DNA from: Alphaproteobacteria bacterium
Lineage (GTDB): Bacteria; Pseudomonadota; Alphaproteobacteria; UBA7887
Direction: 5' to 3'
DNA: 64,000 nt
NCBI GenBank assembly: GCA_965201155.1
Contig: OZ241752.1
Location: 328,755 to 392,754, forward strand
The first letter of the stretch is position 1. The number at the start of each line of letters is the position of its first letter. Shown here piece by piece: positions 22,821 to 24,448 of the stretch. The notes under the pieces are model-generated. The model worked only from the letters and a program-made list of their open reading frames with translations. It ran no database searches and was not told the DNA's origin. The translations under genes and the position numbers were made by a program.

Positions 22821-24038
22821 TTATCGGCGTGTGTGATGCCGTAGAAAGGCCGAAACGAGCGGCGCAATCGTCTCGCGCCATCGCCGACCGTTGAAGATAC
22901 CATAATGGCCAACGCCCGGTTGTTCATGGTCGGCGCGGAGCCGGTTCGGTATGTTTTCGCACAGGCCATGCGCCGCCCGGGTCTGCCCCGGCGGACAGAT
23001 ATCATCCAGACTGCCTTCGACCGTCATCAACGCCGACTGCGTGAGAGCCTGCGGCTCCACCGGGCGCCCGCGGCTGGCCATCACCCCGCGCGGCAGGTCG
23101 TGCTGCTGAAATACTGTGCGCACCGTCTGCAAAAAATACGCCGCGTCGAGATCCATCGTTGCGCGGTATTCCTCATAGAACCGGCGCGTCGCCGCGGCTT
23201 CCTCTCCGTCGCCGCGCACCAGATGCCGAAACATCACCCAATGGGCATTCACATGCCTGTCGAGATTCTGGCTCATGAAACCCGCAAGCTGCAGGAAACC
23301 GGGGTAAACCCGGCGCATCATGCCCGCATGGGGCCACGGAACGCGGCTGATCCCGTGGCTCTCGAACCACTCCAGCGGCAGGGATTCGGCGGCCCGGTTG
23401 ACCCGTGTGGGGTTGACCCGCGTGTCGATCGGCCCTCCCATCAGCACCATCGCCGGCGGTGTGGCGGGATCATTGTCCGCCGCCATCAACGCCGCCGCCG
23501 CAAGCACCGGAACCGCCGGCTGGCAAACCGCCATGACAGGCGTCCCTGGACCCAGATAACGCATCAGCGCGATGATCGTGTCGATATAGGCATCAAGGTC
23601 GAACACCCCTCGATAGAGCGGCACATCGCGAGCATCGGCCCAATCCGTGATGTAGAGATCGTGATCGGCCAGCAAGCGGCTGACCGTGCCTCGCAACAGC
23701 GTCGCAAAATGGCCTGACATCGGCGCAACAATCAGCAGCCGCGGACGCGCCGGCCCGGATTCGCGCTCGAAGTGCACCAGATCGCAAAAGTGCAGCGATG
23801 CCGCGATGCGCTCCGATGCGCCGGGTATATCGAACGCCGGTTTGCCGCGCCGGCGCGTCACCTGCTCGAAGAGATCGCACGCAGCCGCCACCGAACGCGC
23901 CGCGTGGGTGCCGCGAAACGGATTGAACGGATGATCGGCAACGAGGCGCGACTGCTGCGCCGCCAGACGCGCCGGCGCCAGCGACGCGCGGTGCAATTCA
24001 TAAAGGTGATACAGCAAGGCTCCGCCTCGGGTGAGCAC
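22821..24038 (-). CDS. phaZ: Intracellular polyhydroxyalkanoate (PHB) depolymerase, PhaZ family
   Basis: N-terminus LLYHLYELHRASLAPARLAAQ resembles the conserved PhaZ start MLYQLHEFQR. The ORF-track start is a GTG at 24038; the more likely start is a TTG at 24017, so that the protein begins M-LYHLYEL. Confidence 0.65.
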   Translation of the reverse strand: MLTRGGALLYHLYELHRASLAPARLAAQQSRLVADHPFNPFRGTHAARSVAAACDLFEQVTRRRGKPAFDIPGASERIAASLHFCDLVHFERESGPARPRLLIVAPMSGHFATLLRGTVSRLLADHDLYITDWADARDVPLYRGVFDLDAYIDTIIALMRYLGPGTPVMAVCQPAVPVLAAAALMAADNDPATPPAMVLMGGPIDTRVNPTRVNRAAESLPLEWFESHGISRVPWPHAGMMRRVYPGFLQLAGFMSQNLDRHVNAHWVMFRHLVRGDGEEAAATRRFYEEYRATMDLDAAYFLQTVRTVFQQHDLPRGVMASRGRPVEPQALTQSALMTVEGSLDDICPPGQTRAAHGLCENIPNRLRADHEQPGVGHYGIFNGRRWRETIAPLVSAFLRHHTRR

Positions 24039-24154
24039 GAACGATGTATACAGCGAATTGAAACGTCAGTGTACGATCACGACCGGCCGTGTTCCTCGCT
24101 GTTCATGGCCAGTTGTGGGATCGAGGCTGACAAGCCAGTTCTCACCCCGCTGCA

Positions 24155-24427
24155 TTACAGCAGTTCGTTGCCTATAGGCGGGGCGTCAAGCCATGCCCGG
24201 TCCCGATCTTCGGCCGGAGCGGTTTCGTCGCACTGCGCCAGCAGTTCTTCAGGCGTATAGTGCGGGCGGCCTCGTGGCGCGACGATCGAGCGGCGGCCCT
24301 CGACGCCAATATCTACCTTGGCGCCAGCCTGAAGGTCGAGGAGGTCAAGAAGAGCCGGGGGCACTGCGAGCATGACGGAACCGCCAACCTTGCGTAGATT
24401 CGTAGTATGCACGCGGCCCTCCCACAT
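24155..24427 (-). CDS. pemI: PemI/MazE-like (AbrB/SpoVT fold) type II antitoxin, orphan
   Basis: VHTTNLRKVGGSVMLAVPPALLDLLDLQAG...PHYTPEELLAQCD...DRAWLDAPPIGNELL aligns closely with my recollection of the R100 PemI sequence. The true start is probably the GTG at 24412. The IS copy-2 end lies ~25-40 bp upstream. There is no intact toxin gene downstream. Confidence 0.7.
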   Translation of the reverse strand: MWEGRVHTTNLRKVGGSVMLAVPPALLDLLDLQAGAKVDIGVEGRRSIVAPRGRPHYTPEELLAQCDETAPAEDRDRAWLDAPPIGNELL

Positions 24428-24448
24428 TAAATCTCAATGTAACTCATT

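Follow-up and report, generated by a model that had tools for sequence, protein, structure and literature searches.

The subject of this analysis is a group of genes immediately upstream of phaZ, the gene for an intracellular polyhydroxyalkanoate depolymerase, in a 64,000-nucleotide stretch of an alphaproteobacterial genome (contig OZ241752.1, positions 328,755 to 392,754; the whole stretch is hereafter called the window). The locus is read, with a probability of about 0.8, as a chromosomal pemIK toxin-antitoxin (TA) module of the parD/kis-kid family, MazEF superfamily, caught in mid-erosion, that is, as a non-functional relic and not a working system. What remains of the module is the antitoxin gene, pemI, at full length; codons 1-28 of the toxin gene, pemK, with a start that overlaps pemI; and a slightly degenerate palindrome containing the operator and the -10 element. 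Comparison with intact loci shows that pemK codons 29-110 were lost by deletion or illegitimate recombination, together with everything up to approximately 50 bp upstream of phaZ, and that the end of an insertion sequence (IS) of the IS5 family has taken the place of the native -35 element and the other DNA upstream of the operator. A functional type II TA module consists of an active toxin and its cognate antitoxin, and here the toxin gene is truncated after codon 28. The outline given in an earlier note on this DNA, a pemIK-type addiction module in decay, whose toxin has been destroyed, whose antitoxin survives and whose promoter adjoins an IS, is upheld, as is its statement that phaZ follows; several of its details are revised below. 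The features on which the reading depends are:

24155..24412, minus strand: pemI antitoxin gene, full length, 85 amino acids (aa), GTG start at 24412, TAA stop at 24157-24155
24072..24155, minus strand: remnant of the pemK toxin gene (codons 1-28), whose ATG at 24155 shares 1 nt with the TAA of pemI
24018..24071, minus strand: junction segment, reaching from the breakpoint of pemK to the start of phaZ, with no significant pemK homology
22821..24017, minus strand: phaZ, 398 aa, TTG start at 24017, intact (TIGR01849, 514 bits)

The pemK remnant and its breakpoint

The remnant forms most of an open reading frame (ORF) of 29 codons (24155 to 24066, MQRGENWLVSLDPTTGHEQRGTRPVVIVH followed by a stop), the last two codons of which, CAC TGA, lie beyond the homology. 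It scored 30.1 bits with the Pfam profile PemK_toxin (PF02452), above the cut-off of 23.1, the match covering only positions 1-27 of the 109 in the profile, and 49.6 bits (E 7e-17) with a custom profile of 119 close PemK proteins. With the N-terminus of the E. coli IncF PemK, 23 of its 28 residues are identical. The toxin, which the earlier note had taken to be absent, is thus still represented by its first 28 codons, at 24155 to 24072. The 22-codon stub in the antitoxin frame (24077..24145, minus strand), in which that note had seen a weak resemblance to the MazF/PemK N-terminus, does exist, but it has no Pfam or NCBIfam match at E ≤ 1 and no significant similarity to MazF or PemK; it is not a feature in itself but the DNA of the pemK remnant read one base out of register, the adjacent frame encoding the genuine PemK N-terminus.

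In DNA alignments with intact loci, pemK could be followed through GTGATCGTA (codon 28, ending at 24072), after which the sequences diverge. The breakpoint was placed between 24072 and 24071 because the DNA alignment diverges there and the similarity of the read-through sequence is not significant, and some 82 codons, pemK codons 29-110, have accordingly been lost. The read-through sequence past the TGA at 24066 (VIVH, stop, RFNSLYTSFVLTRGG) is in frame with phaZ and resembles PemK residues 29-50 (VIVSPARFNELTRTPVVLPITTGG), and it was considered as a continuation of pemK. It was rejected, since the gain in profile score was +3 bits, a value equalled by 88 of 2000 shuffled sequences and by 228 of 3000 natural tails, and since local alignments at the DNA level gave p > 0.13. 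Neither a terminator nor a promoter was predicted in the junction segment, 24018..24071.

The complete PemK/Kid toxin is an SH3-like barrel that includes the C-terminal two-thirds of the protein, and the catalytic residues of Kid are Arg73 and Asp75. The complete barrel of about 110 aa is not encoded in the window, in which residues 1-28 alone are homologous; the 64-kb window also encodes no second PemK and no second PemI.

An error of assembly or sequencing, with an intact pemK present in the organism, is a general possibility for any truncation, and IS repeats flank this region. The junction of pemK with phaZ is, however, the same in six independently assembled Logan contigs, which come from different runs and span the junction at 99.7-100 % identity, and the loss of approximately 250 bp of pemK goes far beyond a single-base frameshift, so that an artefact can practically be discounted. 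The junction of the IS with pemI was found in one Logan contig, at 99.7-100 % identity.

The three closest PemI homologues that were looked up (79-81 % identity) are each followed by a gene for a 110-aa PemK_toxin protein with the same overlap of 1 nt. These three loci and 80 metagenomic loci made up the survey set, of which 81 loci were evaluable. A full-length PemK of 110 aa was encoded in 75 of the 81; the antitoxin, for which the earlier note had raised the possibility of a normally solitary gene, is therefore normally paired. In the other six loci (PemI 58-81 % identity) the antitoxin was kept and the toxin had decayed or was missing. Two of these, L084 and L086, carry a clean microhomology deletion of 306 bp between two direct repeats of 8 bp (CCGCTGGC), which left 16 pemK codons and removed codons 17-110, as seen when they were compared with locus L083 over locus coordinates 4258-4700. 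Their PemI is unchanged from that of the intact loci, and because of this identity the deletion is taken as recent. In the remaining four loci pemK ends at codon 40 (L131) or at codon 72 (L095), contains an internal stop (L110) or is missing altogether (L162). The window resembles these loci in that the antitoxin, of the same PemI subfamily, was kept and the toxin destroyed. L084 and L086 show both endpoints of the deletion and the 8-bp repeat, whereas the window shows one endpoint, a phaZ neighbour and a PemI that is diverging. Approximately 7 % of the 81 related pemIK loci have thus lost the toxin and kept the antitoxin, in at least five independent events, and by the evidence of these sequences toxin-first decay recurs within the PemI family.

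The antitoxin gene, its operator and its promoter

Three further elements of the locus lie upstream of the pemI coding region, next to the end of IS copy 2, one of two copies of an IS5-family element in the window:

24418..24423, minus strand: Shine-Dalgarno sequence GGGAGG, 5 nt 5' of the pemI GTG (GGAGG at the same place in relatives)
24426..24443, minus strand: putative operator palindrome GTTACAT-tgag-ATTTAAT, of the type of region I of parD of plasmid R1, its left arm being the native -10
24436..24463, minus strand: candidate hybrid promoter, whose -35 TTGAGA (24463-24458) belongs to the terminal repeat of the IS and is separated by 16 nt from the native -10 TACATT (24441-24436)
24448..25735, plus strand: IS5-family element copy 2, with an intact transposase gene (24502-25566) and 16-nt terminal inverted repeats (24451-24466 and 25718-25733)

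The minus-strand ORF 24155..24427 would encode 90 aa if counted from the ATG at 24427. Nearly all of the 120 best PemI homologues have 85 aa and the N-terminus MHTTNLRK. The GTG at 24412, which the earlier note had already suspected, is almost certainly the true start, because the length and N-terminus of the homologues and the Shine-Dalgarno sequence 5 nt upstream agree with it, and because the ATG at 24427 falls within the right arm of the operator palindrome.

Full-length alignments (at least 95 % coverage) were obtained by tblastn between PemI and 4074 plasmid records, many of them labelled pemI or 'plasmid stable inheritance protein I'. The best plasmid match had 63.5 % identity (Xanthomonas plasmids), the E. 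coli IncF PemI 52 % (44 of 85 residues) and the nearest homologue 81 %; the earlier impression of a match to the PemI of R100 almost residue for residue was therefore too strong. The search with PemI/MazE profiles that had been proposed with it did reveal homology, the Pfam profile MazE_antitoxin (PF04014) remaining under its cut-off of 24.7 with 18.8 bits (E 0.0016). Since many 85-aa homologues at 74-79 % identity to the window protein carry a precomputed PF04014 match, this result is taken as a marginal score and not as a sign of a different fold. The NCBIfam models MazE (Agrobacterium type, 1.5e-12) and ChpS (1.7e-8) also matched, both under their equivalog cut-offs. Judged from these similarities, the 85-aa protein is a genuine antitoxin of the PemI/Kis family, i.e. 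one of the AbrB/MazE/SpoVT-type antitoxins of MazF-family toxins. A sequence search of solved structures gave no match at E ≤ 0.01. The AlphaFold2 model of PemI was of low confidence (mean predicted local distance difference test score 58.7), with strands at residues 6-9 and 12-15, a helix at 19-24, strands at 33-38 and 41-46 and then helices, and its top Foldseek matches in the PDB were MazE (1ub4_C, E 1.6e-3), 2mrn and 1mvf, followed by VapB, AbrB and SpoVT. The beta-beta-alpha-beta-beta order of the model and these fold matches are consistent with an N-terminal swapped-hairpin DNA-binding domain followed by an extended toxin-binding C-terminus.

Two non-conservative substitutions were found at conserved hydrophobic positions of PemI. 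Position 42 is Leu in all 79 of 79 diverse PemI sequences, that of E. coli included, and Ser in the window, and position 54, always Leu, Met or Ile in the 79 sequences, is Pro. In the low-confidence model, residue 42 lies in strand beta4, within the DNA-binding and dimerisation domain, and residue 54 starts a helix (54-59) and opens the toxin-binding segment. L42S and L54P give a hint of relaxed constraint and are not proof of it.

The window palindrome (GTTACATtgagATTTAAT, 24443-24426) has three mismatches to the family consensus GTTATAY-N4-RTATAAC and lies 13 nt 5' of the start codon; it is the sole match to this consensus with at most three mismatches in the 64-kb window. The core TTATAY-N4-RTATAA is found 14-23 nt 5' of the start codon in 76 of the 81 relatives and in the E. 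coli IncF pem, and in 39 relatives a TTGnnn hexamer precedes the left arm by 16-18 nt, in most cases by 16. Region I of parD of plasmid R1, GTTATATTTAAATATAAC, is bound by Kis and overlaps the -10 with its left half (PMC1865072). By its motif, the window palindrome is equated with a putative operator of this type. A second operator of the parD region II type was not found in the window and is not evident in the closest relatives either.

On the upstream side of the GTG, a distance of 36-39 nt separates it from the end of IS copy 2 (24448-24451). The closeness of this end to the antitoxin gene had been described correctly in the earlier note; it does not, as supposed there, lie inside the operator, being 4-7 nt upstream of the palindrome at 24443-24426, and for this reason the IS end takes the place of the native -35 and leaves the operator unsplit. 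The transposase gene of copy 2 is directed away from pemI, and transposase read-through into pemI is therefore ruled out. A promoter scan gave TTGAGA-16-TACATT with 9 of 12 matches (one site, 0.4 expected), the spacing being within 1 nt of the native geometry in relatives, and an outward promoter composed of IS and pem sequences is thus plausible as a prediction. No other sigma-70-like promoter was predicted in 23900-24600, and no terminator from pemI to phaZ.

The nearest known system is pem of plasmid R100 (pemI/pemK), which equals parD of R1 (kis/kid), a type II TA system of the MazEF superfamily. The window shares with it the 85-aa antitoxin, 52 % identical over its full length to the IncF PemI, the gene order, the overlap of the toxin start with the antitoxin stop, the toxin N-terminus (23 of 28 residues) and, with R1 parD, an 18-bp palindrome over the -10 (GTTATATTTAAATATAAC in R1, GTTACATTGAGATTTAAT in the window). 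It differs in being chromosomal, in having the toxin reduced to 28 codons, and hence no endoribonuclease and no addiction, in an IS end that has supplanted the native -35 and the DNA further upstream, in the three mismatches of the operator to the family pattern, and in Ser42 and Pro54, where Kis/PemI and the 79 homologues have hydrophobic residues.

The condition of pemI bears on the alternative that the orphan antitoxin is retained by selection as an anti-addiction or immunity gene, which would neutralise PemK/Kid-type toxins from plasmids or mobile elements; expressed from the IS-hybrid promoter without co-repression by PemK, it would allow the host to shed such elements without post-segregational killing. 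The gene is indeed full length, with its Shine-Dalgarno sequence and operator kept and a -35-like hexamer at near-native spacing, and the PemI family is common on plasmids, as the 4074 records illustrate. A role of this kind has been proposed for orphan antitoxins (PMC7192599), and PMC2654758 describes the principle as shown for the chromosomal ccd of Erwinia against the ccd of the F plasmid. According to the same account, ccdEch of Erwinia chrysanthemi (Saavedra De Bast et al. 2008) resembles the window in being chromosomal with an antitoxin homologous to that of a plasmid addiction system, and differs as a complete, expressed TA pair with shown cross-neutralisation, whereas the window holds an orphan antitoxin known from its sequence alone. 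Against such a role, L42S and L54P mildly disfavour it, the 64-kb window contains no PemK-bearing element, and toxin-first decay accounts for orphan antitoxins without selection (PMC13617665). Retention as an anti-addiction gene is accordingly considered unlikely.

The junction with phaZ and the surroundings

On its downstream side the remnant is followed by phaZ, by a dehydrogenase gene and, further on, by a broken gene and IS copy 1:

21582..22760, minus strand: gene for an FMN-dependent alpha-hydroxy-acid dehydrogenase (FMN_dh), 60 nt after phaZ and syntenic with phaZ in the nearest relative
21220..21570, plus strand: 3' remnant of a DUF4411 (PIN-like) gene, without a start, severed by the inner end of IS copy 1
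19929..21217, minus strand: IS5-family element copy 1, in the orientation opposite to that of copy 2, with a frameshifted transposase gene

The TTG start of phaZ at 24017, which is the start given in the source record, lies 48 nt past the stop codon of the pemK stub. A phaZ-anchored scan of GTDB genomes gave nothing above 56 % identity, and a protein search gave one relative (locus L174), with 71 % identity in PhaZ and 76 % in the FMN-dependent dehydrogenase. The earlier note had suggested looking in relatives for an intact pemIK pair before phaZ. None was found: pemI or pemK was present within 6 kb of phaZ in 0 of the 80 loci examined in other taxa, where phaZ is at most 56 % identical, and the nearest relative has kept the phaZ-FMN_dh pair and has no pemIK. 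In this relative, a divergent ThiF/MoeB-like gene stands upstream of phaZ, and that gene is missing from the whole window. Since neither the nearest relative nor the 80 other loci have pemIK at this place, the attachment of the pemI-'pemK fragment to phaZ is taken as secondary, brought about either by the truncation of pemK itself or by a later event.

The arrangement could also be read as co-option of the remnant for the mobilisation of polyhydroxybutyrate (PHB), with phaZ and the FMN_dh gene driven by the pem/IS hybrid promoter and autoregulated by a protease-labile PemI, and thereby coupled to stress. The genes pemI, the pemK remnant, phaZ and FMN_dh all have the same direction, with 48 nt separating the stop of the stub from phaZ and 60 nt separating phaZ from FMN_dh; the lack of a predicted terminator and of another predicted promoter, noted above, fits as well, and upstream of phaZ there are 54 nt of non-pem DNA in the window, compared with a native intergenic region of 81 nt in the nearest relative. 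All of this is an argument from position. Scans for consensus promoters cannot be relied upon in alphaproteobacteria of high GC content, so that phaZ may still have a promoter of its own within the 54 nt or the remnant; the PemI substitutions speak against a maintained DNA-binding role, and the same association occurs in 0 of the 80 other phaZ loci. Such a co-option is thus quite improbable. Similarly improbable is the proposal that the deletion and the IS end together rewired phaZ and FMN_dh, by which a defunct addiction module would have been turned, through domestication, into a stress-responsive switch of carbon storage, with the protease-labile PemI acting on its retained operator.

The terminal inverted repeats of IS copy 2 are 88 % complementary over 16 nt, and its transposase matched NCBIfam transpos_IS5_4 with 273.5 bits (cut-off 140) as well as the Pfam families DDE_Tnp_1 and DUF772. 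In copy 1, one extra base near 20383 causes the frameshift of the transposase gene. The two copies are inverted around 3.2 kb and form a mosaic, the inner ~180 bp being ~80 % identical and the remainder ~99-100 %. At neither copy was a direct repeat of at least 3 bp found as a target-site duplication, whatever the choice of boundaries, and both copies are flanked by unrelated broken genes. Because of these two observations, both copies are taken to bear marks that point to recombination or deletion after insertion, and not to a clean insertion. Two specific arrangements were considered and rejected. An inversion of the 3.2 kb between the copies would leave a reciprocal signature in the flanks, which was not seen, the missing halves of the broken genes not being located beside the other copy; a composite transposon is suggested by the way the inverted copies bracket 21218-24447, but there is no outer target-site duplication. 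A megablast search of plasmids with the IS element gave no match.

IS copy 1 stands between the 5' part of a Sel1-repeat gene and the 3' part of the DUF4411 gene. The Sel1-repeat gene (19414-19928, plus strand) encodes a signal-peptide-like N-terminus, contains three tandem repeat units of 108 bp (19576-19930) and an in-frame stop near 19621, and is severed at its 3' end by the outer end of copy 1. The DUF4411 remnant covers positions 27-159 of the 159 in the Pfam profile and adds another broken toxin-like gene to this patch. The wider flanks consist of housekeeping genes, with SecA, an amidase, a molybdenum hydroxylase and an AraC regulator on one side and UbiD and PmbA on the other, and no integrase, replication or plasmid genes were found around the locus in the window. 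These surroundings do not favour the suggestion in the earlier note that the module is a remnant of a former plasmid or integrative element. The region 34000-42000 of the window has a lower GC content (0.59-0.62, compared with ~0.65 elsewhere), contains tRNA-Leu(CAA) at 35801-35887 and may be a genomic island.

The fate of the module

Under the reading of a relic in mid-erosion, the toxin would have been lost first, this being the only order which a cell survives, after which the antitoxin would have been carried along as a harmless passenger. Any transcription of pemI that still takes place would start from the hybrid promoter formed by the TTGAGA of the IS and the native -10, and the transcript might extend into phaZ, as no terminator is predicted. 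Any PemI made would probably bind its own palindrome weakly, since the co-repressor PemK is missing. In principle it could neutralise an incoming PemK/Kid-like toxin, but L42S and L54P suggest that the antitoxin itself is now drifting.

Several points weigh against this reading. Host relatives in the collections are distant (71 % in PhaZ, 81 % in PemI), and the ancestral state of the locus is therefore inferred. The ORF of pemI is clean and full length, has a good Shine-Dalgarno sequence, a retained operator and a plausible predicted promoter, all compatible with continued function, and PemI is not an outlier by its departures from columns conserved to at least 95 % (one departure, the mode being 0). 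The window comprises 64 kb of a replicon of ~2.9 Mb, elsewhere in which a pemK/mazF paralogue, neutralised in trans by PemI, could be encoded. In a genome with 64 % GC, a promoter prediction made from a consensus of the E. coli type carries little weight, and the order of the pemK deletion and the arrival of the IS is not fixed.

Two-step TA decay in which the toxin goes first has been documented as the common pattern in Photorhabdus (PMC13617665), and orphan antitoxins are abundant in Klebsiella (PMC7192599); the repeated toxin loss in the PemI family agrees with both. The window agrees with the eroded modules of these genera in the truncated toxin beside an intact antitoxin ORF, which represents the first of the two decay steps, and in the mobile elements and gene turnover nearby, and no essential difference from them was apparent. 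Toxin-first TA erosion is thus already well documented, and the locus is one more instance, from an under-sampled alphaproteobacterial lineage, its breakpoint and operator being placed to the exact nucleotide.

As a clean, nucleotide-resolved example of such erosion the locus has little import beyond annotation, for which it would be described as pemI with a pemK pseudogene (5' fragment), rather than as an antitoxin that stands alone before a novel stub. Should the orphan PemI be active, it would be a candidate anti-addiction gene, and should it control phaZ, the locus would be an example of the domestication of a TA remnant. For the family as a whole, the survey shows that enterobacterial plasmids and the chromosomes of environmental alphaproteobacteria have a conserved operator palindrome in common, that of R1 parD region I.

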